The notes: generated from the sequence alone by a model not told the origin. A stretch of 64,000 nucleotides of DNA from Anaerolineales bacterium (GCA_049644685.1 JBARSJ010000131.1:307-64306), one strand, 5' to 3'. Shown: positions 11,185 to 52,634, numbered from the stretch's first letter. Numbers and translations are program-made.

Positions 11185-11212
11185 GGCAAGCTTTATTTAG
11201 AGGAGGTTTCAT

Positions 11213-11755: not shown

Positions 11756-11773
11756 TGACATACCCACAAAACG

Positions 11774-11833: not shown

Positions 11834-11865
11834 ATTGAAAGGTAATTCTAATTTCATAAGGAAAT

Positions 11866-12129
11866 ATGGTTGAGTCTAAAGAATCAAACAAGCAGTGGGC
11901 AGAGTATATTGAACTGATAAGAAAGTATTTCATGTTCCTCTTTGAGGAGTATAACTACGAGATGTCTCATATACAAAAATATGGTGCATTTCACAATGCG
12001 TTTTACATAATCGGACTCAGTGCTAAGGGGCTTCCTAGGCTTCAATTCTTAGGAGAGATTGCACCAGGAATCATGATTGGTTTGCCTGACGCACCATTCG
12101 GAGAAGATAAAGAAATAAATGGACATTAA
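11866..12129 (+). CDS. Hypothetical small protein (first ORF of cassette A3)
   Basis: 87 aa with AAGGAAAT before the ATG. No attC separates it from the next ORF. Confidence 0.45.
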   Translation: MVESKESNKQWAEYIELIRKYFMFLFEEYNYEMSHIQKYGAFHNAFYIIGLSAKGLPRLQFLGEIAPGIMIGLPDAPFGEDKEINGH

Positions 12130-12184
12130 TGTTGGTGGGGATTAGATCAGATAATGGATTACTTATTAAAGGAAGGAGGTATAG

Positions 12185-13285
12185 GTGGTGTTTCCAGATA
12201 TCCTGAATTATTTGATTCTCAAAAAGCACAAATTTGCCATAGTTTTTAGTTTATTTATGGCAGCAGGTACCGCCATTCTTTTGGTAAATCTTTGGCAGGA
12301 TTATAAAATAACCCCTTCTCGCCCAAAACCAATAAGTCCGGAAATGCTTCAGCCAGGCATAGCCTTTCTCCAGTTCAATCAGTGGGTCGAAATTGATATA
12401 ACAGGCCTTCAATGCCAAGAAATGAATTCCCAATCATCAGAAAGAGAAAAGTTTATTAACGGGATTATTGACTTCTTAATGGGCGGTGAAGCACTGCGGG
12501 AACATGTAATACTTTCTAATGAGGCAGAAACCCTTGTGCTGGTGGCAATGTTCTCTAAGGAAGTGACGTGCAGAGAAGTCAGGGATAATTCACCGCTGAG
12601 AGGAGTGATCAGCAGACAGACATTTGAGAGATATAGCAGATTAACAGAAATTGACCCAGTCCTTGCTGAATACGCTTACGACGGATATATTTATAATTTT
12701 TGTGCGTTTTGTGGGAGAGACAATACTCTAATCGGTCTGATCGTTTGCGCAGTGTTATTTATCATCAGTATTGGTTTGTTAATTATAAGTATTTACTTAA
12801 TGAAAGAAAAATCACAAGAAAAGAAAATTGACATTGAAAGCCTTCTGAATCAAACCGAGGACAATTCTTTGCTTATTCAACTTGGTCAACACCTATTCAA
12901 TAAGTACTATAAAAATGGTTTTGATAATCTAACCAAACCTGAGCAGATCATTTTTATGATTGACCAACTAGAGATGGAAATTAATAATGGTGGTTTTGCG
13001 CAGTATTATGGCAACTCTGGTTCCGACTATGCTCAAGATGTCCCTTTTGCTCTGGAATCAATTGGCGCTTCTTACACAGCTGATCTGGTAAGAAAAGGAA
13101 ACTCTTTGTTTCCAAATGGTCTTCCTCCAAAGATATGGCCTGATCGACAGGTTCTTCTTGATAACATTATTAATGATATTCATGACCAACTTGATGAGCT
13201 AGATAATTTATTTTATGAGTATAAAGATCCTTTGGGTAAACTCCAAAGAGAGTATATTCATAAGTACAAAGAACATTTTTCTTAA
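12185..13285 (+). CDS. Membrane-associated protein with C-terminal DMP19/DUF4375-like domain (second ORF of cassette A3)
   Basis: 366 aa. TM segments near residues 15-35 and 180-205. The C-terminal motif LT.PEQ....I..LE.EINNGGFAQYYGNSG resembles the DMP19 family. Confidence 0.6.
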   Translation: MVFPDILNYLILKKHKFAIVFSLFMAAGTAILLVNLWQDYKITPSRPKPISPEMLQPGIAFLQFNQWVEIDITGLQCQEMNSQSSEREKFINGIIDFLMGGEALREHVILSNEAETLVLVAMFSKEVTCREVRDNSPLRGVISRQTFERYSRLTEIDPVLAEYAYDGYIYNFCAFCGRDNTLIGLIVCAVLFIISIGLLIISIYLMKEKSQEKKIDIESLLNQTEDNSLLIQLGQHLFNKYYKNGFDNLTKPEQIIFMIDQLEMEINNGGFAQYYGNSGSDYAQDVPFALESIGASYTADLVRKGNSLFPNGLPPKIWPDRQVLLDNIINDIHDQLDELDNLFYEYKDPLGKLQREYIHKYKEHFS

Positions 13286-13297
13286 ATACATTGAATG

Positions 13298-13380
13298 TGC
13301 TTCCTAACCCCCACTGCACCCGACACTATCGCCTGCGCGCTTCGCGCTCCGCTCAGTGCGAGTGAGCTCATCCGTTAGGT
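13298..13380 (+). other. attC site A3
   Basis: TTCCTAA (13301-13307) is the reverse complement of the cassette start TTAGGAA (11828-11834). The 3' end is GAGTGAGCTCATCC-GTTAGGT (13374-13380). The arms CACT-GCAC / GTGCGAGTG pair with an unpaired base. Confidence 0.8.
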
Positions 13381-13425
13381 GCCTGAAAGATTTGATTAGC
13401 GACAATATTCAAGGAGCGTTTAGAA

Positions 13426-14289
13426 ATGCTTCCCAAACAACTTTTTGGACGCACCGGACATACAAGCTCTCAGATCATATTCGGCGCATATGCTCTCAGC
13501 AATGCAACCCAAGCAAATGCCGCTGGCATTCTTGAATTATTGCTGGAATATGGAATAAACCATATTGACACAGCGCCTATGTACGGAAATTCCGAGAATT
13601 GCATTGGATCATGGATGAAGCAACATCGTGATGATTTCTTCATCGCAACCAAGTCACGAAGCCGCACGTACGAAGGAGCATGGAAAAATCTTCGGCGATC
13701 ATTGGATCAATTGAGAGTTGACTATGTGGATCTCTGGCAAATGCATGGTTTGACTAACCCGGCAGGTTGGGAAAAAGCGATGGGTTCAGGAGGAGCTTTA
13801 GAAGCTTTCATTGAAGCGCGCGACAAAGGCTTAGTCCGATTCCTGGGTGTGACAGGCCACGGCAGCAAGGTGCCAGCTATGCATAAAAGAAGCCTAGAGA
13901 ATTTTGATTTTGATACAGTCTTGCTTCCATACAGTTATTGGCAAATGCAGAATCCCCGTTATGCAGATGCTTTCAATGAATTAATTGGATTGTGCCGTAA
14001 GCGCAAAGTAGCAGTACAGATCATCAAATCTATTGCCCGCCGACCATGGGAGAACCGTCCAAAAACGCACAATACTCATTTCTATGAACCATTAGACACT
14101 CCTGATGCTATTGAAAAGTCGATGCATTGGTCAATGGGTTTGCCAGAAAGCTTCCTGATTACGGCGGGAGATATGGGGATTCTTCCTAAAATGTTAGCTG
14201 CTGCATCTCGCTATCAGAAGCGACCATCTGCTGCAGAAATGAAGGCCATTATGGATGAGTTTGATATTCAACCGATATTTTCGTATTGA
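13426..14289 (+). CDS. Aldo/keto reductase family oxidoreductase (cassette A4)
   Basis: 287 aa. Motifs G.N.IDTA..YG.SE. .G, FIATK, and VDL.Q.H. Confidence 0.8.
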   Translation: MLPKQLFGRTGHTSSQIIFGAYALSNATQANAAGILELLLEYGINHIDTAPMYGNSENCIGSWMKQHRDDFFIATKSRSRTYEGAWKNLRRSLDQLRVDYVDLWQMHGLTNPAGWEKAMGSGGALEAFIEARDKGLVRFLGVTGHGSKVPAMHKRSLENFDFDTVLLPYSYWQMQNPRYADAFNELIGLCRKRKVAVQIIKSIARRPWENRPKTHNTHFYEPLDTPDAIEKSMHWSMGLPESFLITAGDMGILPKMLAAASRYQKRPSAAEMKAIMDEFDIQPIFSY

Positions 14290-14299
14290 TCTGAAGAAA

Positions 14300-14616
14300 A
14301 TGCACCTGACCGCCTGCAGAGTGACAAGGAGACTTTTGGGACAGAGAGACAGGGTGAGCAGTAAAAACAAAGTTACTGATTACTGAACACTGATTACTGA
14401 ATACTGGAACCCGGCACCAGGTGCCCTTTACCCGAAGTATAGGCCTGTCCAGCCTGCCCTGAGTTTATCGAAGGGAACGAAGCAAAGCGATGTTAAAGGG
14501 CTTCGCAACCCTTCGTCTCCCCCCTCGGTGGAATTTATACAAAGCGAAGCGAAGTGCTCGGGGTTCGCTCAGGACAAATGCCCTAAAGGATGCTTCGCTA
14601 AGCTCATCCATTATGT
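14300..14616 (+). other. Atypical, expanded attC-like region A4 (about 317 bp)
   Basis: GCACCTGA (14302-14309) matches the reverse complement of the cassette start TTAGGTGC at 7/8 positions. The 3' end GCTAAGCTCATCC-ATTATGT (14610-16) is a degenerate copy of the family end. The interior is filled by heptad repeats (14373-14407) and CGAAG-type palindromes. Confidence 0.4.
14373..14407. repeat. Heptanucleotide tandem repeat (YACTGAW) x5
   Basis: TTACTGA TTACTGA ACACTGA TTACTGA ATACTGG. Confidence 0.85.
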
Positions 14617-14657
14617 GGAAGCAAATCACTGCCCGTTATATTTACTGATAAAAGAGA

Positions 14658-15551
14658 TTGACCATGGAGAATATTCAGGAAAAGACCTTCAATACAGGCG
14701 AGGTAACAATCAACTACGCTGAGGTGCCGTCATCTGGTCCCCCACTCATGCTGCTTCACGGTGGGGGTGATCGCTGGCAATCATTTTTACCTATCATTCC
14801 ACCTTTAGCGAAGAGGTGTCACATCTATGCTTTAGATTTGCGCGGGCATGGTAAATCTGGACGCTTACCAGGCAAGTATCGTCCTGAGCACTATGTGTCA
14901 GACATTGTCGCCTTTCTTGAAAGTCAAGTTGCAGGGAATGCGATTCTTTTTGGTCATTCATTGGGAGGTTGGATTGCTTTACTGGTCGCGATGGAAATGA
15001 AAGAGAAGGTAAGTGGTGTCATACTTGGAGATCCGCCACTGAACATGGAACGCTTTCTTGCGTACGAGGGCAGTGTGGAGAGAATCAAATTGTGGCATTC
15101 ATTCCGGGCTCTAGCAATTTCAGACTTATCTATTCCAGAGTTTGAAATTGAGCTTTCTAACGTGCCAGTATCGTTGCCAGGACAAGATAAACCGATACGG
15201 TTTGGCGATCTGCCAGGAGTAGATGAAACCTATCTCAAACAGATGGCTGAGACAACAAGCCTCATGGACCCAGATGTAATCCAGTATCATGCTGAAGGAT
15301 GCCTGGATGAGTATGTTAATCAAGTAGACCTGGAAATGATTTTGAAAAGCATTACTTGTCCAACCTTATTAATTCAGGCAGATCCAATGTGTGGAGGAGT
15401 CGTCTCGGACGATGATGTAAAACGCACCTTATCTTTGTTATCATGTGGGCATCATGTGCAATTGAATGGGGCAGGTCACGACTTGGGTTTCAGCAAAAAG
15501 AAGGTAAATACTCTTATAAGTATGGTAACAAGTTACCTCGAGTCTTTGTGA
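14658..15551 (+). CDS. Alpha/beta-fold hydrolase (cassette A5)
   Basis: 297 aa. Motifs LLHGGGD, nucleophile elbow GHSLGG, and C-terminal GAGHD. Confidence 0.8.
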   Translation: MTMENIQEKTFNTGEVTINYAEVPSSGPPLMLLHGGGDRWQSFLPIIPPLAKRCHIYALDLRGHGKSGRLPGKYRPEHYVSDIVAFLESQVAGNAILFGHSLGGWIALLVAMEMKEKVSGVILGDPPLNMERFLAYEGSVERIKLWHSFRALAISDLSIPEFEIELSNVPVSLPGQDKPIRFGDLPGVDETYLKQMAETTSLMDPDVIQYHAEGCLDEYVNQVDLEMILKSITCPTLLIQADPMCGGVVSDDDVKRTLSLLSCGHHVQLNGAGHDLGFSKKKVNTLISMVTSYLESL

Positions 15552-15681
15552 AATGGTTGCAACTTTCATTTGAATTTGTCACCTAACCCCCTCTGCCTTT
15601 AGTACGACCTTAGGTCTCAGGACAGGGTACCTGACCACCTAAAGACTGACTGGGAGACTGGGTGAGGGGGGGACCGGGTGA

Positions 15682-15702
15682 ATACTGATCACTGATTACT
15701 GG
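15682..15702. repeat. Heptanucleotide tandem repeat x3
   Basis: ATACTGA TCACTGA TTACTGG, preceded by GACTGGGAGACTGGG words. Homologous to the 14373 locus, including the downstream TACTGGAAmCC...CCAGGTrCCCTT. Confidence 0.8.
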
Positions 15703-40030: not shown

Positions 40031-40490
40031 ACCAGGTCACAACCCACCGGAGTCAAAAAGGAAGCTCTGGAGAGCGCCATGGCAGGGCATATCCTGGCTC
40101 AGGCGGAGCTGATGGGGACATTTACGCGGTAAGAAAACCTCCTCCAGCGGAAAAATCAATCAGATAAATTGGGGATCGTTGGCATGATCCTCAATCTATC
40201 ATGTTTCTTTTCCAGAATTAATGGCAGTTTTCTTGTATAATGAATGGATACTCGATTTTTGTCCTTGTCCACTTGGCTATGAGTAAAAAACTGGTGAGGA
40301 ATATTCCTAAGGCAGTTCATTTTCTAGATATCCACCAATTTACCTCAATCCCAGAACACCGATAATCTCACTAATCCCCATCATCCCCGGCAGGTTGGGG
40401 GAAGTTCGTTTCCCCATAGTTAAACTTCTCATCTCAGAATATAATGCCACTGGATAGGCGATTATTTTGAATATCTTAAGGAGGAAATCC

Positions 40491-41408
40491 ATGAACCAAG
40501 GTCTGAAAATTTCCCTTATTGTATTTATCATCTTATTAGGCATAGTCTTTATCGCTCTGGTTATAGTGACTCGCTCCCAGGCAGTGGATATCGTCAACCA
40601 CCCTCCGGAAGAGCGCCCGGAGATCGAAGAAACGCCGGAAGACTATGGAATGATTTATGAGAAGGTCAGCGTGACAACCGAGGACGGTTTGAAACTCTAC
40701 GGATGGTATATCCCGGGAGAGAACGGGGCTACAATCATGATCGCGCATGGGTCTCCGGGAGGAAGGCAGGACGGACTCTATGAAGCCGGCTTTCTAAACG
40801 AAGGTGGTTATGGAGTCCTGCTGGGGAGTTTCAGGGCTCATGATGAGTGCGAAGGCGAACTGATCAGCTGGGGCTATCATGAACAGAAGGACATTGCCGC
40901 CTGGCACCAGTATCTGCTTGGACGTGATGACGTTGACCCGGAACGAATTGGCCTTTTCGGGGAATCGATGGGAGGAGGAACAGGAATTCTTTATACCGCG
41001 GGAGACCCAGGCATCGCAGCCCTGGCAACGGGAAGTGGTTTTGCCCTCACCCAGGAGGTCATTGAAAAGTTTATTCAGCATGAGCTTGATCCACCACAAT
41101 GGATCACTCCAATATTGGCCGGTTTTATCAAATTCTGGGCCCAGCGCGAAGCGGATTTCAGGACAGAAGATTTAGATACAGAAGCAATCATTGCTAACAT
41201 CAGCCCTGTACCGATCCTGATCATCCATGGCGGTGAGGACGACAAGATCGGTCCCGACAGCGGCAAACAGCTCTTTGCGGCCGCCGCTGAACCCAAGGAA
41301 CTGCTGTGGATCCCTGAAGCAGGCCATGTCAATTTTGAAGACTTCCAGCCGGAGGAATACAAGAATGCCCTTTTGGGTTTCTTTGACCAGCACCTGCTGG
41401 AGCAATAA
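40491..41408 (+). CDS. Membrane-anchored alpha/beta hydrolase (S9/DLH-like)
   Basis: AAGGAGG RBS before the ATG at 40491. N-terminal TM helix, nucleophile elbow GESMGG, and C-terminal GHV. Confidence 0.75.
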   Translation: MNQGLKISLIVFIILLGIVFIALVIVTRSQAVDIVNHPPEERPEIEETPEDYGMIYEKVSVTTEDGLKLYGWYIPGENGATIMIAHGSPGGRQDGLYEAGFLNEGGYGVLLGSFRAHDECEGELISWGYHEQKDIAAWHQYLLGRDDVDPERIGLFGESMGGGTGILYTAGDPGIAALATGSGFALTQEVIEKFIQHELDPPQWITPILAGFIKFWAQREADFRTEDLDTEAIIANISPVPILIIHGGEDDKIGPDSGKQLFAAAAEPKELLWIPEAGHVNFEDFQPEEYKNALLGFFDQHLLEQ

Positions 41409-41528: not shown

Positions 41529-41602
<74 letters not shown>

Positions 41603-41720
41603 CTGTCTTGGTCCCATCTCGAACCTCATAGTGAGGAAGTAGAGCAATTCCTGGCAATGCTCAGATTTGAGCAGAAAAGCGAGGTAAAAAGGCTCTCAGA
41701 ATTCCTCAAATGAGGTAGAG

Positions 41721-41960
41721 ATGGGTTCTTCATTTAAAGGCACAAATCCTGATGTAACAGAAGATTACATTACCGTAAAAACTGCATCCAAATTCAGTGG
41801 TTACAACGAACAATACCTTCGAAGGTTATTAAGGGGGGGAATTTTCAAGACCAGAAAGATTGGACAACTCTGGTTGATTGAACAAGCTGATTTTGGAAAA
41901 TACTTTTCTGAAGCTACAAAATCAGATGATAAGCGATTTGGCCCCCAATCAAGTACGTAA
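41721..41960 (+). CDS. Small helix-turn-helix DNA-binding protein (excisionase/MerR-like HTH)
   Basis: 79 aa. The segment ITVKTASKFSGYNEQYLRRLLRGG....RKIG..WLI....F..Y resembles HTH_17/excisionase-family proteins. GAGG RBS upstream. Confidence 0.5.
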   Translation: MGSSFKGTNPDVTEDYITVKTASKFSGYNEQYLRRLLRGGIFKTRKIGQLWLIEQADFGKYFSEATKSDDKRFGPQSST

Positions 41961-41971
41961 CATAATTGTTA

Positions 41972-41977
41972 TATAAT
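41972..41977 (+). promoter_or_regulatory. Candidate -10 box (TGTTATATAAT context) upstream of cassette array B
   Basis: TATAAT with a TG two nt upstream. It lies between the HTH gene and the direct repeats. No convincing -35 box. Confidence 0.3.
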
Positions 41978-41988
41978 ACAGATAAGCA

Positions 41989-42057
41989 GATATCAGTCCA
42001 AATGGACCGATTATTACCGATATCCGGTCCAAATGGACCAATATCTATAGGTTAGCT
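41989..42057 (+). other. attI-like junction: two direct repeats followed by the first GTTAGCT crossover box
   Basis: GATATCAGTCCAAATGGACC (41989-42008) and GATATCCGGTCCAAATGGACC (42019-42039). Each contains the inverted repeat GTCCA-aa-TGGAC. A third, partial AATATC follows, then GTTAGCT at 42051-42057. Confidence 0.45.
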
Positions 42058-42091
42058 GGATCGAATAATTGTTAGGACAAAGGAGAGTAGA

Positions 42092-42793
42092 ATGGCGACA
42101 TATTTGTTTTGCGTTGGCGGTCATACGGGGGGCTGGTGGGTACGAGAGATAGGTATCGAATCTCAACTTCGGGAAGCAGGTCATGAAGTATTCAGACCCA
42201 CCTACACAGGTGTGGGCGAACGTATCCATCTTAGTAACCCTAACATCGACCTAAACACCCACATACAAGATATCTTGATGGTGCTCGAATATGAAGAGCT
42301 AGAGGATGTAATCCTTGTTGGACATAGCTATGGAGGAATGATTGCAGCCGGAGTGGCTGAGAAGTGCCCGGAAAGAATCGCTCACATGGTCACATTAGAT
42401 GGCATCATTCCAAATGATGGACAATCGGTCGCAGACATTATCGGAGCTCAGGTAATGGAGTTCCTAAAGGGAAATGCTAAGGCGCATGGTGAGGGGTGGC
42501 AAGTAATACCTGATTGGCCCGGTGTGAAACCAAGACATACAGGGCATCCGCTCGCAACAATGCAAACAAAAATCGATATTAGTAATCCTAAAGCAGCGGA
42601 GATCCCAAAGACATATATCTTTTGCACAGAGGGCAAGGAAGAGCTTCCCATCATTCAATACACAATTGATCAAGTTCCCAGGGTAAAGTCGGATCCAAAC
42701 TGGGAGTACTATGAAATCCAGACTGATCACGAGCTTACTGAGACTGATGAACTCGTAGGGATTCTTCTGGATATTGGACGGCGATCCAGCTAA
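42092..42793 (+). CDS. Alpha/beta hydrolase (esterase; salicylate-esterase-like) (cassette B1)
   Basis: 233 aa. Nucleophile elbow GHSYGG. AAAGGAG RBS. The TAA stop lies inside the attC R'' box. Confidence 0.75.
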   Translation: MATYLFCVGGHTGGWWVREIGIESQLREAGHEVFRPTYTGVGERIHLSNPNIDLNTHIQDILMVLEYEELEDVILVGHSYGGMIAAGVAEKCPERIAHMVTLDGIIPNDGQSVADIIGAQVMEFLKGNAKAHGEGWQVIPDWPGVKPRHTGHPLATMQTKIDISNPKAAEIPKTYIFCTEGKEELPIIQYTIDQVPRVKSDPNWEYYEIQTDHELTETDELVGILLDIGRRSS

Positions 42794-42867
42794 CCCCCGC
42801 TCCACCCGACAGCCAGGGGAGGACCGGGAAAGGAAGACCCGGCTGCGGGTGAGCTCATCCGTTAGCT
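42783..42867 (+). other. attC site B1
   Basis: CGATCCAGCTAA (42782-42793) is the exact reverse complement of the cassette start TTAGCTGGATCG (42052-42063). The arm GCTC(C)ACCCG(A)CAGCC pairs with GGCTGCGGGTGAGC, leaving two extrahelical bases. The unpaired spacers are CCCC / TCATCC. It ends in GTTAGCT (42861-42867). Confidence 0.85.
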
Positions 42868-42934
42868 GGCTAATTGTGCTTTTACTGGAATATACTGTCT
42901 TGACAAATGCGAGTTCACGCGGAGGAAATGCAGA

Positions 42935-44863
42935 ATGTCCGAACCTAAAATAGCACCTTACGGCTCGTGGAGATCACCCATCACCTCCGACTTGATCGTC
43001 GCCGAGACTATTGGGTTGAACCAGCCCACCTTTAACGACGATATCTATTGGCTTGAACTGCGTCCCAAAGAGGGTGGGCGGCTTGTCCTCGTGCGGAGCA
43101 CTTTTAACGGCAAAACGACCGACCTCACACCCGAGCCGTTCAACGTACGCACGCGCGTGCACGAATACGGGGGCGGCGCCTACGCTGTCTCGAAAGACAC
43201 GGTGTACTTTTCTAACTTTCTTGACCAACGCCTTTACCGGCAAGATCATGGCGGTCCACCGTGCCCGATTACAGCCGAGGCTGCCTTTCGCTATGCAGAT
43301 TATGTTCTTGATCGGGACCGCAATCTGCTTTTCTGTGTGCGGGAGGATCACAGTGGGTCAGACGAGGCCGTGAACTCATTGGTAAGGGTGAAATGCGAGG
43401 GTGACGAAAGGGGGGGAGAAGTGATTGTCTCTGGCAACGATTTCTATTCTTCTCCGCGCCTCAGTCCAGATGGAGCACATCTGGCTTGGCTGACGTGGAA
43501 CCACCCGAACATGCCCTGGGATGGCACCGAACTGTGGGTTGGTGAAGTCAAAGCTGATGGCTCGCTAGGCCGAAAAGAGTTCGTAGCGGGTGGCCTCACA
43601 GAGTCCATCTTCCAACCGGAATGGTCGCCAAATGGCGTTCTATATTTCGTCTCCGACCGGACAGGATGGTGGAATCTCTATCGCTGGCAGGCTGGACGTG
43701 TCGAACCGTTATGTCCCATGGAAGCTGAGTTCGGAGGGCCACAGTGGGTCTTTGGCATGTCCACTTTTGCGTTTGAATCGGTCAAGCGAATTATCTGCAC
43801 ATATTTAAAGCAGGGAAAGTCACATCTGGCGAGCCTCGACACGACGACGCTCAATCTGGAAGAGATCGAAACGCTGTATACGGATATTAAAAGCCTACAT
43901 GCCGCGCCAGGGCAGGTGCTGTTCATTGCTGGTTCGCCCACCGAAACCGCATCTGTCGTTTTGCTTGATCTGGCTACGCGGCAATACGAAGTCCTGCGCC
44001 GTTCGAGCGGGCTAAAGGTGGACCCTGACTATATCTCCATTCCTCAGGCGATCGAATTTCCCACTGAAAGCGAGCTTATGGCTCACGCTTTCTTTTATTC
44101 GCCATACAATCGTGACTATGTTGCGCCGGAGAGCGACCAACCTCCCATGCTGGTGTTGAGCCATGGTGGGCCGACCGGGGCAACTACAGCCGTATTCGAT
44201 ATGCAGATCCAATACTGGACAAGCCGTGGCATCGCCGTACTAGATGTAAACTACGGTGGTAGTACTGGCTATGGGCGCGCCTTCCGTCAGCGGCTCAACA
44301 GGCAGTGGGGCATTGTGGATGTAGACGATTGCATTAATGCAGCCCGTTACCTGGTCGACCGCGGCGAGGTTGACGACAAGCGGTTGGCGATTGCTGGCGG
44401 CAGCGCGGGCGGATATACGACCCTAAGCGCCCTGACCTTTCGTGACATTTTCAGCGCTGGCGCCAGTTACTTTGGCGTCGCTGATCTGGAGACGTTGGCC
44501 AGGGATACACACAAGTTTGAGTCGCGTTACTTGGACAACCTGATTGGTCCTTTTCCTGAACAGCGTGATCTCTATGTCGAGCGCTCACCCATTCACCATG
44601 TCGATTTGTTATCCTGCCCGCTTATCCTATTCCAGGGATTGGAAGACGAAGTGGTTTCACCAGACCAGGCCGAAAAAATGTTCGAGGCTGTGCGCGCGAA
44701 GGGATTGCCAGTTAGCTATCTGCCTTTCGAGGGTGAGCAGCATGGCTTCCGAAAAGCCGAGAACATTAAACGTGCGCTGGACGCCGAACTATATTTTTAC
44801 TCAAGAATATTTGGCTTTGAATTGGCCGACCCAGTTGAGCCGGTGTCGATTGACAATTTGTGA
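42935..44863 (+). CDS. S9-family serine peptidase (prolyl oligopeptidase / acylaminoacyl-peptidase type) (cassette B2)
   Basis: 642 aa. N-terminal beta-propeller-like region, then a catalytic domain with GGSAGGY (nucleophile), D.VV and EGEQHGF. Confidence 0.85.
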
Positions 44864-45016
44864 GCCCAGTTTATGTATGAAAGAGATGGCTGCTATATTG
44901 CGGCACCTTCAATGTTCGGTTGGATCCAACTAATCCTGCGAGCAACCACTCGGCTTTATCATACTGGGCTCCCTCACCAACAACCTACATTTTTTTGATG
45001 AGTCTTGCAAACCAAA

Positions 45017-45144
45017 GCGCCAGCTAAAAAAATGCACACGAATTGCTACCTTTCCGTTTTTAGAAATAGGTTGCGCCTGTGGAGTCACTTTGGTTTTGAG
45101 GTTGGTTTCGCTGACCCGAAATCACGTAATTTTGGGCGTTAGCT
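45017..45144 (+). other. attC-like site B2 (boundaries convincing, internal pairing poor)
   Basis: GCCAGCTAA (45019-45027) is the reverse complement of the cassette start TTAGCTGGC (42862-42870). It ends in GTTAGCT (45138-45144). I could not find a good L-box stem by eye. Confidence 0.45.
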
Positions 45145-45162
45145 TGCCAGAGGAGTAGGACA

Positions 45163-45792
45163 ATGAGCAAGGATCCATATAGACGGGTTGCAGGTATCTA
45201 TGACAGAATATTCGAGCCCATGAATCGTGGCTTGAGGGTCCTTGGTTTTCGCATGTTCCTTCCACCACGCGGTGGAGCCGTCCTGGATATTGGATGCGGG
45301 ACGGGAATCCACCTTGAGATGTATCAAAGATACAGCTGTAACCTATATGGCATTGATACTTCCCCATCTATGCTCGAACTGGCCAGAGACCGGTTGGGGG
45401 AGAGCGCCGAACTCCGTCAAGCGGATGCGATAAATATGCCCTACGAGACGACCTTTTTTGATCTCGTACTCTGCATGCTTGTGCTGCATGAAATGGATGA
45501 TGAGGCGCGCACAGGGGTTTTGAGTGAGATGAAGCGTGTAATCAAGACCGATGGCCGCGTACTTCTCATCGATTTTCACGCCGGCAAACCACGTTCGTGT
45601 AAGGGGTATTTCTCCAAGTTGGTGATAGTGTTTTCCGAGGTTGCCGCGGGACGAAGGCACTTTCGCAACTATCGTCATTTCATGTCAATTGGTGGATTGC
45701 CAACCTTGATTGACAAGAGTCGGTTCGAAATTGAGAAGACGAGAATTGTAGGCGATGATACCCTTGCCCTTTATCTACTTCGTGGAAAGTGA
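45163..45792 (+). CDS. Class I SAM-dependent methyltransferase (cassette B3)
   Basis: 209 aa. Motif I VLDIGCGTG and a post-I acidic residue (GIDTS). Confidence 0.8.
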   Translation: MSKDPYRRVAGIYDRIFEPMNRGLRVLGFRMFLPPRGGAVLDIGCGTGIHLEMYQRYSCNLYGIDTSPSMLELARDRLGESAELRQADAINMPYETTFFDLVLCMLVLHEMDDEARTGVLSEMKRVIKTDGRVLLIDFHAGKPRSCKGYFSKLVIVFSEVAAGRRHFRNYRHFMSIGGLPTLIDKSRFEIEKTRIVGDDTLALYLLRGK

Positions 45793-45824
45793 AGTAGGCA
45801 AACCATCCTGTCCTCAGGTTAAAT

Positions 45825-45916
45825 CAGGCAAGCTAACGTCTCGCTGGAGCGGACCGCGCGCGAGGCGCTGGAATTGAAGTTGGTGTGTGGGGCTGCTCAG
45901 CTCGAAACTGTTAGCT
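45825..45916 (+). other. attC site B3
   Basis: GGCAAGCTAA (45827-45836) is the reverse complement of the cassette start TTAGCTTGCC (45139-45148). The arm GCTG(G)AGCGG(A)CC pairs with GGCTGCTCAGC. It ends in GTTAGCT (45910-45916). Confidence 0.75.
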
Positions 45917-45926
45917 AGGTCAGAAT

Positions 45927-46037
45927 AAGGTACAATTCAGACAATTATTAAGAAAAATGTATTCGAAAAGTGGTTCGTGATCTGTCCACTAACGTCCACT
46001 AGAATCGCTTGACGAATCCGGCGGGCGATTATTTTTC
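45927..46037 (+). ncRNA. Repeated noncoding module R1: -10-like box, conserved 29-nt motif, terminator hairpin (candidate small transcript)
   Basis: TACAAT (45931-36). Motif GGTTCGTGATCTGTCCACTAACGTCCACT (45972-46000). Hairpin AATCGC/GCGATT followed by ATTTTT (46003-46036). Confidence 0.35.
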
Positions 46038-46143
46038 ATAAGCAGGTTGATTCCCCTTATGCATTGAAAATATTTTTTATTATGCTACTATCAATTTATA
46101 CAGATTAATTAAAGATTACCCACGCTAATCAATATAGCTTTCC

Positions 46144-46181
46144 AAAAAACAATGCCAAAATATAAAGGCATTGTTTTTTTA
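46144..46181 (+). terminator. Rho-independent terminator inside cassette B4, upstream of the aminopeptidase gene
   Basis: AACAATGCC-aaaatataaa-GGCATTGTT followed by TTTTT, and preceded by AAAAAA, so it may work in both directions. Confidence 0.6.
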
Positions 46182-46228
46182 TCAAAACGGCATACTTTAT
46201 GGGAATAAAATCTGGAAGAATAAAACAA

Positions 46229-47476
46229 ATGAAAACCCAAGATTTCGATCAAAAACTAGAAAAATATGCAGAGTTAATCGTCAAAGTCGGATTAAATCTT
46301 CAGCCTGAACAACGACTTTTTCTCACTGCCATTTCACTAGATGTCGCACCCCTCGTCAGGCAAGTGGTGAAAAGTGCCTATAAAAATGGGAGCAGATTGG
46401 TGTCAGTCCTGTGGTTAGACGAACAGCTGGATAAAATCAGGCATCAGAACGCGCCACGCGATTCGTTTGAAGAATTCCCTACCTGGAGGACAGATGGGGA
46501 ACTGCAATGTATTGAGCGTGGAGATGCTAACTTATACATTGTCGGCAGAAACCCTGAATTATTAAAGGACCAGGACCCTAAACTTGTTGCGATTGCTGCC
46601 CGGACTGTAGCTAAAAATAATAAACCAATACTTGGCCATCTGGGGAAAAATTCTATACAGTGGTCCTGTGTAGCTTCACCTACTCCAGATTGGGCCATAA
46701 AAGTGTTTCCAGATAATACACCACAAGATGCAGAAGCGCGATTGTGGGATGCGGTCTTTAAGGCGTGCCGAATAGATGAACCTGATCCAGCCGTTTTTTG
46801 GGAGAAACATCTTGACAATCTTGAAAAAAGAGCAAAATACCTCACTGATAAACAGTACTCAGCATTACAATTTACAGGGCTGGGCACGAACCTCACAGTT
46901 GGTTTACCGGAAGGTCACATTTGGGGAGGAGCCAAAGTTAAAACCCCGTCGAATATTTCCTTTGTAGCCAATTTACCTACAGAAGAAGTATTTACCTTAC
47001 CTCACAAAAATAAGATTGAGGGTACTGTTACAGCAACCAAACCTCTTAGTTATCAAGGCAATCTGATTGAGAATTTCAGCTTTACCTTTTCTGAAGGAAA
47101 AGTTGTTAATTTTTCCGCAGAAAAAGGTGAAGAAACATTGCGCAATTTGCTAGAAACCGACGAGCATGCCAAATCTCTGGGTGAGGTCGCATTGGTTCCC
47201 CATCAGACACCGATCTCGCAATTAGACTTAATATTCTTGAACACGATATATGATGAAAATGCTTCTAATCACCTTGCATTAGGAAATGCATACCGATTCA
47301 CACTTGTAGATGGAAAGACAATGTCTGATGAAGAATTCGAGCAAGCTGGTGGAAATGACAGCCTGATTCATGTTGACTTCATGTTTGGATCTGGCGAGAT
47401 GGACGTAGACGGGTTGCTGGCCGATGGGGTAACAGAACCAGTAATGCGCGCAGGAGAATGGGCATTTGATTTGTAG
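46229..47476 (+). CDS. M29-family aminopeptidase (AmpS/PepS/aminopeptidase T type) (cassette B4)
   Basis: The N-terminal F...L.KYAEL.VKVGLN.Q..Q.L pattern is typical of M29. The C-terminal motif is H.A.G......G.N.S..H.D. The start at 46229 (MKTQDF) is preferred over 46199. Confidence 0.8.
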   Translation: MKTQDFDQKLEKYAELIVKVGLNLQPEQRLFLTAISLDVAPLVRQVVKSAYKNGSRLVSVLWLDEQLDKIRHQNAPRDSFEEFPTWRTDGELQCIERGDANLYIVGRNPELLKDQDPKLVAIAARTVAKNNKPILGHLGKNSIQWSCVASPTPDWAIKVFPDNTPQDAEARLWDAVFKACRIDEPDPAVFWEKHLDNLEKRAKYLTDKQYSALQFTGLGTNLTVGLPEGHIWGGAKVKTPSNISFVANLPTEEVFTLPHKNKIEGTVTATKPLSYQGNLIENFSFTFSEGKVVNFSAEKGEETLRNLLETDEHAKSLGEVALVPHQTPISQLDLIFLNTIYDENASNHLALGNAYRFTLVDGKTMSDEEFEQAGGNDSLIHVDFMFGSGEMDVDGLLADGVTEPVMRAGEWAFDL

Positions 47477-47485
47477 CCTAAAGTT

Positions 47486-47546
47486 AAGGTCCTAACCCGC
47501 GCTGTAGCAAAAGCTAGGATCGCGCTACTGAGCTCATCTGTTAGAT
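47486..47546 (+). other. attC site B4
   Basis: TCCTAAC (47490-96) ... CTGAGCTCATCT-GTTAGAT (47540-46). It carries the family signature at both ends. Confidence 0.7.
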
Positions 47547-47567
47547 CGCTCAAGATAATTAAATTCT

Positions 47568-47630
47568 AAGGTTATAATTAGGAAAAATCTATTAGAAAAG
47601 CGGTTCGTGATCTGTCCACCAATGCCCACA
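47568..47630 (+). ncRNA. Repeated noncoding module R2 (inside ORF-less cassette B5)
   Basis: GGTTATAAT (-10 at 47573-78), then GGTTCGTGATCTGTCCACCAATGCCCAC (47602-29). Confidence 0.35.
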
Positions 47631-47646
47631 AACAAAATAACCCTCA

Positions 47647-47655
47647 TGCTATACT
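47647..47655 (+). promoter_or_regulatory. Extended -10 box TGCTATACT inside ORF-less cassette B5, reading through the short attC into cassette B6
   Basis: Identical 9-mer to 10356-10364. The distance to the GTTA crossover is 90 nt, against 85 nt at array A. Confidence 0.4.
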
Positions 47656-47701
47656 TCTTGCAGAGGGGATAACATCTTTGGATGTTACCTTCCACGTCGA
47701 T

Positions 47702-47752
47702 ACATAACGCCTAAATGATTATCACGCAGGTGAAACATAATTAACGTTATGT
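47702..47752 (+). other. Short attC-like site B5 (51 nt class)
   Basis: ACATAACG / CGTTATGT form an 8-bp outer stem, followed by an internal loop. The inner stem is ATTAT-CAC / GTG-(aaac)-ATAAT. 30/32 nt are identical to 10422-10453. Confidence 0.5.
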
Positions 47753-47920
47753 CCAAAGACTTTTGAAGATCTGCTATTTTAGGTGACCAATTGGAGGAAT
47801 CCTTGTGCCCCCTTTTGTAAAAAGCATGCACCTTTGCCATGATTTCTATTTCGAGTGTTGCTCCGATAATGGAAAGACATTTTCCTGAAATTTGCCGTTA
47901 CCTTAGATGAGGAGTGTTTT

Positions 47921-49153
47921 ATGACGCAGTTGGATTCAAAATTTATCAGAAGTCAATTTCCTGCATTCCAAGAGCCGTCATTAAATGGATGGGGCTTTTT
48001 TGAAAATGCGGGCGGGTCCTATACTTGCCGGCAGGTGATTTCCTGCCTGAACGACTACTATACACAGACTAAGGTTCAACCCTATCATAATTACCCAGCA
48101 GCACAAAAAGCGGGTGCGGCAATGGATGAATCCTACAGTCGACTGGCAGCATACCTCAATGTCAGCGAAGATGAAGTCCAGTTTGGCCCCTCAACCACTC
48201 AGAACCTCTATGTTCTGGCCCAAGCCTTCCGAGAGCTGTGGAACGAGGGAGATGAAATCATCCTGTCCAACCAGGATCACGAGGCCAATGCCGGATTTTG
48301 GAGGCGCCTTGAAAAAACAGACATCGTGATCAAGGAATGGTGCGTTGATTCTGAAACAGGATTATTGAATCCGGATGATTTGGATGCCATGCTGTCCCAT
48401 AAAACCAAGTTGCTGGCATTCCCTCATTGTTCCAATATTATTGGCCATGTCAATCCGGTGACTGAAATCGTATCAAAGGCAAAAGCTGCCAACGTCTGCG
48501 TAGTAGTGGACGGGGTGGCCTATGCCCCTCATGGACTGCCGGACATTGGATCACTGGGAGCAGATATTTACCTGTTTTCCCTTTACAAGACCTGGGGACC
48601 ACATCTCGGGCTCATGACCATTAACAAAGAACTCATGGATAGGTTGCCCAACCAGGGTCACTTCTTTAACAGTCACATTCTTCGAAAAAAGATGCTGCCG
48701 GCTGGCCCTGACCATGCCCAGATCGCTGCCGCTTCTGGTGTGGCCCACTATCTTGATACTGTTTATGAGCACCATTACTCCAAATCGGTGGATCAGGCAG
48801 AAAAAGGAAGGCATCTTAGAAAACTATTCCGGGATCATGAGAGAAATCTGCTGGCAAAGCTCCTGGAATGGTTGCGGCAGCGCGACGATATTTACATTGT
48901 TGGACCAGATGATCCCGAACTACGCGTTCCAACCGTATCGATCATACCCCAAAAGAAATCCATTGATGAGGTCCAAGCGGTACTGACAGCAAATAAACTG
49001 ATGACAGGGCAGGGACATTTTTACGCTGCCCGCCCGTTAATGGGATTGAACATCCCCATTGACACCGGTGTTCTACGATTTTCATTCCTCCATTACACAA
49101 TTGAGGATGAGATCAACCAACTTATTGACGGGCTTTCCACAGCTCTGGGTTAA
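47921..49153 (+). CDS. Class V aminotransferase-fold PLP enzyme (cysteine-desulfurase / selenocysteine-lyase-like) (cassette B6)
   Basis: 410 aa. The motif FSLYKTWGPH is a candidate PLP-lysine site. GAGGAG RBS upstream. Confidence 0.7.
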   Translation: MTQLDSKFIRSQFPAFQEPSLNGWGFFENAGGSYTCRQVISCLNDYYTQTKVQPYHNYPAAQKAGAAMDESYSRLAAYLNVSEDEVQFGPSTTQNLYVLAQAFRELWNEGDEIILSNQDHEANAGFWRRLEKTDIVIKEWCVDSETGLLNPDDLDAMLSHKTKLLAFPHCSNIIGHVNPVTEIVSKAKAANVCVVVDGVAYAPHGLPDIGSLGADIYLFSLYKTWGPHLGLMTINKELMDRLPNQGHFFNSHILRKKMLPAGPDHAQIAAASGVAHYLDTVYEHHYSKSVDQAEKGRHLRKLFRDHERNLLAKLLEWLRQRDDIYIVGPDDPELRVPTVSIIPQKKSIDEVQAVLTANKLMTGQGHFYAARPLMGLNIPIDTGVLRFSFLHYTIEDEINQLIDGLSTALG

Positions 49154-49243
49154 TACGATGAATCCCCGCAGAGTCTGTCTTGAAATCTGTCAGATCAAAG
49201 TACACTCAATTTTTGGAACCTAGGGAAATGGCATATCAAAAAC

Positions 49244-49329
49244 ACCTCATAACCCGCCGGTCAACCGGACAGCAGGGGCTTCCGATCCGCTCCAGCCCTG
49301 CTACTGGTTACCTCTGCGATAGGTTGAGA
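49244..49329 (+). other. attC site B6
   Basis: CTCATAAC (49246-53). GGT(C)AACC pairs with GGTTACC, and AGCAGGG(G)CT pairs with AGCCCTGCT, giving two extrahelical bases on the 5' arm. It ends in GTTGAGA (49323-29). Confidence 0.6.
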
Positions 49330-49347
49330 AAGAAATTCGCTTACTAT

Positions 49348-49447
49348 AGGGTTATAATTCAGGAGAATATTATATAAAGCCGGTTCGAGATCTGTCCACT
49401 AACGTCCACTCAATTACCGCTATTCTAAGAGGGTAGCGGTTTTCTTG
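49348..49447 (+). ncRNA. Repeated noncoding module R3: -10-like box, conserved motif, terminator
   Basis: GGTTATAAT (-10 at 49353-58). Motif GGTTCGAGATCTGTCCACTAACGTCCACT (49382-49410). Hairpin ACCGCTA/TAGCGGT followed by TTTCTT. Confidence 0.4.
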
Positions 49448-49529
49448 TTCTATAATACAATTATACAGAACTGCAACGATACTTCCTGAACATCACCATA
49501 AATCGAACCATTAAACTGGATAACCTACC

Positions 49530-50177
49530 ATGCGAACATATATTCAACTGGAAAACACACATATATATGAACTCCCGGTGGAATTTCAAGATGATGATGT
49601 TCGGTACTCAGAGAGCCTGGTAGAGTATTTTTTAAATAAATATACCAAGGAGAAGGATTTAGTATTTGATCCGTTTGCAGGATTTGGAACCACCCTGTTG
49701 GTTGCAGAGAGAATGGGGAGGATACCCCTCGGTATAGAATTCGATGAGAGTCGCGTGCAGTATATTCAATCGAAGTTGAAGCAGCCAGCCAAAATAATTC
49801 TTGGGGATTCACGTAAACTTAAATCATATAACTTGCCAGCCTTCAACTTCTCAATTACCTCGCCTCCCTATATGAGCAAATTCGATAGAGAAAACCCATT
49901 CACAGCATATACAACAAAAGGAAAAGGCTATTCGGCATATCTTAATGATATTCGATCCATTTATAAACAGATGGCTCATTTAATGGCAACTGATGCAATG
50001 GTTGTTCTAGAAATTGCAAATATCAAAAAAAGAGGCAGTGTCACTACACTTGCCTGGGATATTGCCAAAGAAATATCTCAGGTGCTTCATTTTGAAGGTG
50101 AAATAATTGTGAATTGGGATAATTATGGCGGTGGTTACGATCATAGTTATTGTTTGATATTTACAAATCCAAATTAA
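49530..50177 (+). CDS. DNA methyltransferase (N6-A or N4-C type), no restriction partner nearby (cassette B7)
   Basis: 215 aa. The SAM-binding motif FDPFAGFGTT precedes the catalytic SPPY. Confidence 0.75.
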   Translation: MRTYIQLENTHIYELPVEFQDDDVRYSESLVEYFLNKYTKEKDLVFDPFAGFGTTLLVAERMGRIPLGIEFDESRVQYIQSKLKQPAKIILGDSRKLKSYNLPAFNFSITSPPYMSKFDRENPFTAYTTKGKGYSAYLNDIRSIYKQMAHLMATDAMVVLEIANIKKRGSVTTLAWDIAKEISQVLHFEGEIIVNWDNYGGGYDHSYCLIFTNPN

Positions 50178-50193
50178 CTTCCGATAGAAAGTC

Positions 50194-50281
50194 AGTTCGA
50201 GATCTCCAACACCCTCGTGTTGGAGTCGCAGGATGGGGAAATTGACCTTCCCCTTCCCGCTGATGTCCACCAACGTCCACT
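50194..50281 (+). repeat. Module R4: the conserved motif split by a 58-nt insertion, at the right end of array B
   Basis: AGTTCGAGATCT (50194-205), then a 58-nt insert with hairpins CCAACAC/GTGTTGG and GGGGAA/TTCCCC, then TGTCCACCAACGTCCACT (50264-81). No promoter box is present. Confidence 0.5.
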
Positions 50282-50287
50282 AAGCTA

Positions 50288-50330
50288 AAGCCCCCACCCC
50301 TGGAAAGGAAATGGGGGCTTGCTTTTTATT
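50288..50330 (+). terminator. Rho-independent terminator closing array B
   Basis: AAGCCCCCA-cccctggaaaggaaa-TGGGGGCTT followed by GCTTTTTATTT. Confidence 0.7.
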
Positions 50331-50359: not shown

Positions 50360-51424
50360 CTACAAGCGAATCACATCTCCGCAAAACTCACAAGTAATAC
50401 TCTCCATCCCCCGTAGCAGGACCTGATTGATCGCCCCGCCGCAGGAGGGGCATTTTGTTGGTGCATCCTTGACTTTTTTGGCAGCAGCTTGGTCAATGGC
50501 GATGGCTCGCGTGGCGTCAAATTCCTTAGCTTTGGCCCGTTTGAGCAGGGCTTTCCATTCGTCGCCCCTTTGCCAGATGTGCAAATGCAGGAGGTCAAAG
50601 GGCGCACCGCTACTAAAGCGCACCTCGATATAGTCATCTTTATTCAAAAAACCCTCTTTGCGGGCCTTTGTCTCCTCGATCAGCGCTAGGGGGGCCTCCC
50701 AGAGGAGATCCTGGACCAACTTTTTCTCCGTGGCCACAAAAAGCACCTTCTTCGTCGCCACCTTTTCCTTCTGTTCAAAAAGGATCCGCTGGTCGGTCAA
50801 ATACAGTACTCCCTCAGGGTCATCTTTAGACTGCTTGCCGCCCTTCGCCCAAACTGCCTTGACCGCCATGATCCCTGATTCAGTTGCCAGCAGCTCAAAA
50901 CTCGCCTCGCTGAGTTCTGTCAGCATCCATTCCAGTTTGGTGAGATGGTTTTTTACTTTCTGAACCTCGCCGCTGAATTGATCGTATCCCCCGCGGATGC
51001 TTTCCTCCGCTGCCTCGACGCGGCCTTCCAGCGATTCCACCTGGGATTTGAGCTTGCTCACTCGGGGACGCAGGGCCCCCGGCGCTCCGCTTTCTCCCCC
51101 CAACCCCGCGATCTGCGTCTCCAAAGGGCGCAAGGACCGCTCCATGATACTGGCTTCTTTCTCAATCTGCGCTTCGAGTTTGGGCGCGATCCCGGCCCAT
51201 TCTTTTTCAAAATCTGCCGCCATCTCTTCCAATTCTTTCTCGAAAGCATACCCACTCTCACGCAAGGATTCGATCCGCCGATCCATCCCGTTGACAGATG
51301 TACCCAAATCCTCCACACTATCCCGGATCTCCGTCATCCGCACCGAGGATTGTAAATCCCGCAAAGAAGATTGCAGGTTTTGAATATCGTTTTTAACTTG
51401 CTCGGCAAGGCTTTGATTTGACAT
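50360..51424 (-). CDS. Coiled-coil protein with bacterial PH/GRAM-like domain and C-terminal zinc ribbon; unknown function
   Basis: 354 aa. The N-terminal ~180 aa have heptad-like, Glu/Leu/Ser-rich sequence. GVLYLTDQRILFEQKEK is bPH-like. The C-terminus is CPSCGG...CEFCG. GAAGGAG RBS upstream. Confidence 0.6.
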   Translation of the reverse strand: MSNQSLAEQVKNDIQNLQSSLRDLQSSVRMTEIRDSVEDLGTSVNGMDRRIESLRESGYAFEKELEEMAADFEKEWAGIAPKLEAQIEKEASIMERSLRPLETQIAGLGGESGAPGALRPRVSKLKSQVESLEGRVEAAEESIRGGYDQFSGEVQKVKNHLTKLEWMLTELSEASFELLATESGIMAVKAVWAKGGKQSKDDPEGVLYLTDQRILFEQKEKVATKKVLFVATEKKLVQDLLWEAPLALIEETKARKEGFLNKDDYIEVRFSSGAPFDLLHLHIWQRGDEWKALLKRAKAKEFDATRAIAIDQAAAKKVKDAPTKCPSCGGAINQVLLRGMESITCEFCGDVIRL

Positions 51425-52199: not shown

Positions 52200-52634
52200 A
52201 TGCCGAACAGAAGAGATTTTGATCATATAGGCAGCTTTAATTTCAGGGTGGAAATAAATGGGGTAACTGAGGGCCACTTCATTTATGTCTCTGGTCTTGA
52301 AAGTCAGAGTGAGGTGATTGAATATAGAAATGGCGCTGATAACCTCACCAGAAAAATCCCGGGGCGTACTTCGTATTCTAATATCATAATGCGCCGTGGA
52401 TACAATAATGTGGATGAATTATGGAATTGGCGAAAAAGTGTCACGGATGGGGCTATTAATCGGAGAAGTGGCTCAATATTCATCCTGGGTGCTGATGCGG
52501 AAACTGTAATCACGGAGTTCAATTTTTTTGAAGCCTGGCCCTGCCGCTATGAACTGGGACAATTCAATGGGGACCTCGATTCCGTATTAATTGAAGAGAT
52601 TGAAATCGTTACTGAAAGAATTGAACGAAAATAA
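52200..52634 (+). CDS. Phage tail-tube-like protein (T4 gp19 / 'conserved hypothetical phage tail region protein' family)
   Basis: 144 aa. Pattern F.F.VEI.G.....F..VSGLES..EVIEYR.G.......K.PGR..Y.NI...RG......LW.W.........R..GSI.......E.....F..AWP......F......V.IE.IE. AAAGGAGG RBS upstream. Confidence 0.75.
   Translation: MPNRRDFDHIGSFNFRVEINGVTEGHFIYVSGLESQSEVIEYRNGADNLTRKIPGRTSYSNIIMRRGYNNVDELWNWRKSVTDGAINRRSGSIFILGADAETVITEFNFFEAWPCRYELGQFNGDLDSVLIEEIEIVTERIERK

Follow-up and report, generated by a model that had tools for sequence, protein, structure and literature searches.

Gene cassettes downstream of tRNA-Val

The stretch of DNA analysed here (JBARSJ010000131.1, positions 307-64306; hereafter the window, 64 kb at its full length) comes from the chromosome of an uncultured member of the Anaerolineales (phylum Chloroflexota), and its housekeeping genes include glmS with its ribozyme, mfd, CTP synthase, enolase, ftsZ and ftsK. 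At 42052-50285 it holds an array of co-oriented single-gene units next to a tRNA-Val gene. An initial annotation had read this region as one run of seven integron-type cassettes, with attC sites, G/TT junctions (the slash marks the crossover) and no integrase within reach. This core reading was backed by structure, by homology and by comparison with related contigs and loci (L numbers below), and we consider it very probable that the region is a real integron gene-cassette array whose integrase gene, intI, has been deleted and whose attI site has been retained. It is not, however, one homogeneous array of seven cassettes, but four tandem mini-platforms separated by modules that carry partial tRNA 3' ends (R1 to R4). 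The features of the region are the following.

41529-41603 (+): tRNA-Val(cac)
41604-41960 (+): post-tRNA block, with TGGTCCCATCTCGAACC at 41609-41625, and a 79-aa helix-turn-helix (HTH) gene of the HTH_17 family at 41721-41960
41961-42051 (+): attI, type A (attI-A), with a TATAAT-bearing leader, dyad boxes GTCCAAATGGAC at 41995-42006 and 42026-42037, and crossover G42051/T42052
42052-42861 (+): cassette 1, alpha/beta-hydrolase (esterase) gene 42092-42793 (Pfam) and attC1 42784-42866 (covariance model)
42862-45138 (+): cassette 2, S9 peptidase gene 42935-44863 (Pfam); the proposed attC2, 45019-45143, is degenerate or unsupported
45139-45910 (+): cassette 3, S-adenosylmethionine (SAM) methyltransferase gene 45163-45792 (Pfam) and attC3 45827-45916 (covariance model)
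45911-46198 (+): R1 module, with an array-terminal segment, core GGTTCGTGATCTGTCCACTAACGTCCAC at 45972-45999, a terminator hairpin, a degenerate promoter/attI-like stretch at 46075-46104, and repeat families D1-D3
46199-47540 (+): M29 aminopeptidase unit, gene 46199-47476 (Pfam, E=5.6e-153) and attC4 47486-47545
47541-47747 (+): R2 module, core 47602-47629, with the remnant of a second attI type (attI-B) ending ...GAAACATAATTAACG/TTA, crossover 47747/47748
47748-49323 (+): class V pyridoxal phosphate (PLP) enzyme cassette, gene 47921-49153 (Pfam) and attC6 49243-49329
49324-49529 (+): R3 module, with a terminal segment, core 49382-49409, terminator 49416-49440 and a degenerate attI-A leader at 49445-49469
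49530-50177 (+): N6/N4 DNA methyltransferase gene (Pfam), without attC, between R3 and R4
50184-50330 (+): R4, long core 50194-50280 and terminator hairpin 50290-50330, the right end of the mosaic

The tRNA gene, recognised by ARAGORN and by the Rfam tRNA model (69 bits), is the chromosomal anchor of the locus. Platform 1 comprises this tRNA, the HTH gene, attI-A and three cassettes; platform 2, R1 and the M29 cassette; platform 3, R2, the attI-B remnant and the PLP cassette; and platform 4, R3, the DNA methylase gene and R4. The Pfam families agree with the genes that had been named for the seven units. The GC content of the cassettes ranges from 40 to 55%, and an exact-protein look-up with the product of the esterase cassette returned no further context.

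To search for attC sites, a covariance model was trained on nine of them, namely attC1 of the window and eight from related contigs, and was run with filters off. In the array region this lineage-specific model gave matches only on the plus strand, that is, the strand of the genes.

42784-42872 (+): attC1, 93 bits (training sequence)
47486-47551 (+): attC4, 23.4 bits, E=4e-4
45827-45921 (+): attC3, 17.5 bits, E=0.018
49243-49329 (+): attC6, 14.5 bits, E=0.12

Four of the six sites proposed initially were thus recovered, and two failed. The proposed attC2 (45019-45143) scored at most 3.9 bits, folded no better than shuffled sequences (z=+1.2) and has an R'' box ending in ...CTAAA where ...CTAAC would be expected (AAC to AAA). 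The proposed site 5 (47705-47751) scored at most 4.4 bits and gave no attC signal. Rfam, at both gathering and E-value thresholds, matched only the tRNA in this region and no attC.

The structure of the sites was conserved across the family. In an alignment of 26 members, which was fitted to the model and hence favours structure, paired cells amounted to 87.5%, versus 26-41% in controls with slid partners. Changes on both sides were seen in 8 of 14 L-stem pairs, and none of 500 shuffles reached the observed covariation. Two single-base bulge columns are fixed on the 5' arm (a bulged C and a bulged A in attC1); on the bottom strand these would correspond to unpaired G and T, as in known attC sites. 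The family follows the pattern AAC-CCCC-GCTCCACCYGAC ... GGTGAGCTCATCCGTTA, and several units end in GAGCTCATCYGTTAG (repeat family D19), the common 3' end that had already been pointed out. None of the sites has a T-run.

Moreover, the expected mirroring between each R'' box and the start of its own cassette was borne out. It reached 14/14 for cassette 1 (42050-42063 against 42782-42795), 93% over 15 nt for cassette 3 (45137-45151 against 45824-45838) and, read directly, 9/9 for cassette 2 (42862-42870 against R'' GCCAGCTAA at 45019-45027). Both hallmarks of attC sites are therefore found in the array: an R'' box of the form ..YTAAC that mirrors the start of its own cassette together with an R' box GTTRRRY, and L''/L' stems with extrahelical bases in which structure is kept rather than sequence.

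The attI site and the loss of the integrase gene

At the left end of the array only tRNA-Val, an HTH gene and a direct-repeat region had been recognised. The tRNA and the gene stand as described, whereas the direct-repeat region is an attI site with two dyad boxes. Window positions 41954-42056 are 95-97% identical to the attI that lies beside intI in L014 and L017, and the site also aligns with the attI of L007. The leader ATAAGCAGATATC and two dyad boxes are common to the window and its integrase-bearing relatives, in which G/GTTA follows, and intI, attI-A and the same attC family occur together in L007, L064 and L065. The boxes themselves vary between contigs (GTCCAAATGGAC, GGCAAAAATGCC, GGTTCAAATGAACC, GCGAAAACTTTCGC and others), always with dyad symmetry kept; the stretches that bear them are 41995-42037 in the window, 6835-6880 in L003 and 11290-11340 in L007, with others in L064 and L065. 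The attI leader also contains a conserved TTATATAAT. A promoter consensus scan gave only a 9/12 match, at 41938-41966. Neither the promoter-like nor the terminator-like scan was enriched over shuffles, and both were uninformative.

An exact look-up of the HTH protein (NCBI MGB2955608.1) led to four contigs of the same species, L003, L004, L005 and L006. L003, L004/L005 and L006 are mutually identical through ...GATAACAACAG, up to G/TTA, after which they read GTTAGGCATC, GTTATGTGGC and GTTAGGTGAC, respectively, and continue into unrelated genes. Strains with the same attI therefore differ in their first cassette exactly at the predicted junction, and the first cassette of L006 ends with an attC of the family found in the window. 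The S9/alpha-beta-hydrolase gene upstream of tRNA-Val (window 40467-41408) is represented in L003-L005 only by its last ~35 codons; this is a strain-level deletion with no relation to the cassette junctions.

No tyrosine recombinase was detected in the 64-kb window, either by Pfam or by tblastn with the IntI of L007 (best E=2.9), so the missing integrase reported initially is confirmed for at least 41 kb upstream and 13 kb downstream of the array. In relatives, intI is found between the HTH gene and attI, on the opposite strand. More distant homologues of the HTH gene (61-67% identity) are followed by a convergent gene of 320-324 aa and then by the attI-A leader, and the proteins of L007 and L015 match TIGR02249, the integron-integrase model of NCBIfam, end to end, with 448 and 443 bits (cut-off 265). 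Among contigs that share one identical HTH protein, intI is intact in L015, frameshifted in L014 and reduced to approximately its first 2 and last 29 codons in L017. The HTH frame of the window continues into GTAACATAATT, a stretch that belongs to the intI leader just upstream of attI in L015 and L017. This suggests that a deletion removed the 3' tip of the HTH gene, the whole of intI and part of its leader. This junction of HTH gene and attI, ACGTAACATAA, recurs beside tRNA-Val(tac) in L013 (HTH 89% identical) and behind an ABC-transporter unit in L022 (82%), so the integrase-less form is either old or has moved. In L014, the ~350-nt stretch upstream of the HTH block had no Rfam match. An integron integrase 76% identical to the IntI of L007 (P0105) is labelled by NCBI as belonging to a Promethearchaeota metagenome-assembled genome (MAG), a label due either to spread of the lineage across domains or to faulty binning.

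The HTH protein matches PF12728 (HTH_17, excisionase-type) with 25.7 bits, just below the cut-off of 27, and 85 homologues were found. In 37 GTDB loci (L019-L055), nearly all from Anaerolineales or other Chloroflexota, the gene lies 100-200 bp downstream of a tRNA (Val, Arg, Glu, Lys or Gln) or of a tRNA 3' fragment, always after the block TGGWCCCAWCTCGAACC. Members of the family sometimes occur several times per genome, in tandem with repeated tRNA 3' fragments, and L019/L026 and L022 show tandem units in the order tRNA, HTH, cargo, repeated tRNA 3' fragment and HTH again. These loci look like the tRNA-proximal end of a decayed family of integrative islands, with no integrase in sight. Two roles for the HTH gene were considered and set aside. 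It is not an obligate partner of intI, because it adjoins intI in 0 of the 37 GTDB loci and is missing from L064 and L065, both complete integrons, and its product is unlikely to read the dyad boxes of attI, because identical HTH proteins accompany different boxes.

A second integrase-less array, which starts with an attI-B, was found in the left part of the window.

10340-15700 (+): second array, with attI-B at 10340-10452 (G/TTAGATGG), three attC sites and decayed sites
11091-11189 (+): attC, 21.6 bits
11772-11838 (+): attC, 43.3 bits
13298-13385 (+): attC, 44.2 bits
near 14577-14621 (10 bits) and 15575-15700 (+): weak or decayed sites, from the model and from reading of the sequence

Its left edge reads ...GCATTCGTGATGCTATACT...GAAACATAATTAACG/TTAGATGG at 10340-10452, and the start of its first cassette is complementary to its own R'' at 12/12 positions. 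The same attI-B stretch precedes the first cassette in L063 and in L021, where it follows tRNA-Val and the HTH gene without intI. The last 18 nt of attI-B are identical at 10436-10453 and 47732-47749 of the window, in L021 and in L063. The unit of the main array that had been described as ORF-less and bounded by attC is therefore R2 followed by an attI-B remnant, at which the PLP cassette sits. The cassettes of the second array encode DUF4253, DMP19-like, aldo/keto reductase and alpha/beta-hydrolase proteins and have a low GC content (38-43%).

Partial-tRNA modules and the origin of the platforms

The R core corresponds to the T-arm and acceptor 3' strand of a tRNA, with ATCTG inserted in the T-loop, and GGTTCGWGATCTGTCCACYAAYGYCCAC occurs four times in the window, against 0.14 copies expected. 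In L063 its 3' half is the same as the tRNA-Val fragment that forms the left end of that locus, and in L164 it is the same as the 3' end of tRNA-Val(tac). R4 carries in addition an insert of 60 nt with two hairpins, between GAGATCT and GTCCAC, and such long forms were located at 50194-50280 of the window, 1335-1420 (-) of L125, 2499-2587 of L148, 12721-12807 of L164 and 5240-5327 of L179. Their stems differ by compensatory changes, for example CTCCAACAC/GTGTTGGAG versus CTCCAA/TTGGAG, and the two-hairpin insert could be a structured RNA or DNA element. R was also considered as a possible tmRNA or new kind of tRNA-like RNA gene; this was rejected on the negative results of ARAGORN and Rfam and for lack of a matching acceptor 5' strand.

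In metagenomes, ~25 of 120 pattern matches were true R elements, the rest being mostly chance matches in coding DNA. Most true copies lie directly 3' of an attC R' box; the conserved TATAAT segment that precedes the core usually begins at the attC G/TT, and a terminator hairpin follows. Modules homologous to R1 occur in L091, L140 and L148, and the orthologous tRNA-Val(cac) loci L125, L140 and L179 likewise bear attI and/or R modules. L125 has the fullest layout: terminator, attI-A, cassette, attC, long R, terminator, attI-A, cassette, attC, R, terminator and a final attI-A whose box, GTCCAAATGGAC, is that of the window. The layout is abbreviated in L179 and L140. When the modules were aligned, a terminator and a decayed attI-A leader came after R1 and R3 of the window, and the attI-B remnant after R2.

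The cassettes between the modules can be followed across contigs as well. The PLP cassette (47890-49322) is 95% identical to that of L091, which has the same order of R, attI-B, PLP cassette and attC as the window and differs from it beyond the downstream R core. For the DNA methyltransferase no attC was found, as already stated in the initial annotation; its unit is bounded by R repeats, and a homologue in L148 (78% identity) is also held between a long and a short R. In L148, a pair of HTH/HipA-like genes (3860-4492, annotated by sequence reading) follows the R-bounded metagenomic array.

From these arrangements a history of the locus can be proposed. The ancestral order would have been that of the relatives, with a tRNA or its 3' fragment, the HTH gene, intI on the opposite strand, attI and the cassettes, and a deletion that began at the HTH gene's 3' end and reached the intI leader would have removed intI and left attI with its TATAAT leader intact. 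Cassettes would have entered at attI through IntI-catalysed G/TT recombination between attI and the folded bottom strand of attC, which would account for the fact that each R'' still mirrors the first bases of its own cassette. Any further excision or insertion would have to rely on an IntI encoded elsewhere. The most likely origin of the tandem platforms is that small units were joined one after another at the tRNA/R site, through either a tRNA-site recombinase or an IntI acting on attI-bearing modules. Each module may end upstream transcription and restart it, so that every unit would have a terminator and a promoter of its own.

Several observations weigh against the array being an integron that has lost its integrase. 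The covariance model is family-specific and had attC1 itself among its training sites; by this model attC6 is marginal (E=0.12) and two of the proposed sites fail. Minimum-energy DNA folds of single sites were mostly unremarkable (z from -3.4 to +1.2). The differences in first cassettes between strains could reflect homologous recombination instead of recent IntI action, and as no IntI of this organism was found in the 64-kb window, part of a contig of only ~70 kb, activity in trans is conjectural. The R cores of the window (TCCACYAAYGYCCAC) differ from the 3' end of the resident tRNA-Val(cac) (TCCATTCGCGCCCAC) and therefore do not come from simple integration into that tRNA, and we know of no recombinase that acts on R. 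The unremarkable folds, like the terminator-like and promoter-like scans that were unenriched over shuffles, would suit an ordinary chromosomal gene cluster in which the inverted repeats are intrinsic terminators and the likeness to attC is due to chance. Such a cluster is, however, already contradicted by the evidence in hand and hardly conceivable: the sites lack T-runs, they have conserved R''/R' boxes with AAC/GTT, covarying stems and fixed bulges, they match those beside bona fide integron integrases, and the gene content of strains differs exactly at G/TT.

A different matter is how the R-bounded units arose. They may belong to a tRNA-anchored genomic island built by successive small integrative elements, similar to tycheposons, with R as their partial-tRNA att repeats and the integron parts as cargo of some of them. 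This is quite possible, although we lean away from it; it is compatible with an integron-derived cassette array and competes only over the origin of those units. It would explain why the R cores are partial tRNA-Val 3' ends, why tRNA 3' fragments are repeated together with HTH and cargo in L019/L026 and L022, why the HTH gene adjoins five different tRNA species, and why the methyltransferase unit is R-bounded without attC both in the window and in L148. Tandem islands flanked by partial tRNAs have been described for tycheposons (10.1101/2020.12.28.424599). Here, too, a full tRNA and partial-tRNA direct repeats flank the units, yet the 3' halves of the window copies do not match the end of tRNA-Val(cac), and an element-encoded, tRNA-targeting integrase was found neither in the window nor in the L019 island nor in L148. 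No contig with a vacant tRNA-Val(cac) site was retrieved. Moreover, the ATCTG insert common to all R cores suggests one propagating module and not independent duplications of local tRNAs, and the fact that this module usually begins exactly at the attC G/TT would be left unexplained by an attC-independent integrase. Another reading is that terminal segment, R core, terminator and attI form an attI cassette mobilised by IntI, excised between an attC and the downstream attI and reinserted at other attC sites, in which case new promoter-equipped insertion points would be seeded inside arrays. In L125 and L063 the module does have G/TT on both sides, from an attC R' box at its left end and from the attI crossover at its right, its first bases vary like R' boxes, and recombination of delta-attI-type cassettes by IntI1 is documented in mobile integrons (PMC12901181). 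We nevertheless regard this mobilisation as unlikely: no attI follows several R copies (R4 of the window, L140, L148), no attC precedes some of them (L140, the long R of L148), and no circular junction or empty site was observed. More doubtful still is growth at two levels, with cassettes gained through attC and whole mini-platforms captured in tandem at tRNA-Val/R by a recombinase that acts on the tRNA-like core. The integron integrase itself could play this part, with help from the excisionase-like HTH protein, and single-gene units between R repeats, such as that of the DNA methylase, would in that case represent a second, attC-independent kind of cassette.

Some genes outside the array complete the description of the window. 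The array is followed closely on its right by a gene for a 354-aa coiled-coil protein, 50360-51424 (-), and a tail-tube gene (T4 gp19-like), 52200-52634 (+); these may be what is left of a phage or part of a contractile injection system. Upstream of glmS, 1787-3628 (-), there is a glmS ribozyme at 3741-4007 (-) (Rfam RF00234, 42.6 bits).

Relation to known integrons and islands

The locus is a CALIN (clustered attC sites without an integron integrase) formed by loss of intI, in a mosaic form split by repeats that resemble tRNA ends; the R modules leave its basic classification as an integron-derived cassette array unchanged. A CALIN is recognised by two or more attC sites, spaced by 4 kb or less, in the absence of a neighbouring intI, and the window holds four such sites at 42.8-49.3 kb and at least three at 11.1-13.4 kb. 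As in a complete integron, there is an attI with G/TT insertion; the adjacent intI with its integron-specific domain is absent from the window and present in the relatives L007 and L015. A sedentary chromosomal integron would have more than ~20 cassettes and highly similar attC sites, whereas here there are at most three cassettes per platform and the attC scores within the array spread over 14 to 93 bits.

Both CALINs and integrons of Chloroflexota are known from the literature (PMC4889954, PMC8618304), and NCBI already labels integron integrases in Anaerolineae MAGs. Loss of intI is among the proposed origins of CALINs (PMC4889954; PMC8618304), most of which have no intI remnant nearby (15 of 279 have one; PMC4889954) and no identifiable attI. 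Our literature search found no prior description of a partial tRNA/terminator/attI module that splits arrays into tandem platforms, nor of a mapped intI deletion with attI kept across species. The origin of a CALIN is usually untraceable; here the loss of intI can be read base by base, from intact through frameshifted and internally deleted to fully deleted, within one lineage. With attI kept and first cassettes still differing between strains, the locus offers a natural test case for whether platforms without an integrase remain active by means of an IntI provided in trans. How distal cassettes could acquire a transcription start of their own is suggested by the recurrent module, a partial tRNA with a terminator and, in related contigs, an attI. 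The locus also connects integron platforms with the building of tRNA-anchored islands, in a phylum that has been little studied.

We compared the locus with the systems that it most resembles. With CALINs it shares at least two co-oriented attC sites, no intI within 4 kb, non-resistance cassettes and a chromosomal location, but it keeps a recognisable attI, its intI deletion can be mapped, and its array is broken up by modules with a partial tRNA and by internal copies of attI. The complete integrons of Chloroflexota/Anaerolineae (L007, L015, L064, L065) have the attI-A leader, the attC family and the cassette orientation in common with the window, which differs from them in that intI is missing and the HTH gene directly abuts attI. 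Sedentary chromosomal integrons such as the Vibrio superintegron are likewise chromosomal, with a partly homogeneous attC family and diverse non-resistance cassettes; the window, in contrast, has a handful of cassettes per platform, heterogeneous attC sites, several attI copies and no integrase.

In delta-attI-type cassettes (PMC12901181), attI or its remnants inside an array also serve as cassette boundaries. Those cassettes, however, belong to class 1/2 clinical integrons in which IntI1 is present, whereas the internal attI copies of the window are found in an environmental chromosome, along with a terminator and a partial tRNA. Finally, the locus resembles tycheposon islands (Hackl et al., 10.1101/2020.12.28.424599) in its tandem units beside a tRNA, the partial tRNAs that separate them, the excisionase-like gene and the decayed leftovers. 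Unlike them, the locus showed neither a tRNA-type tyrosine recombinase nor a replication module, and its units are single genes of 0.8-1.8 kb, bounded by repeats with a fixed 5-nt insert and interleaved with integron sites.

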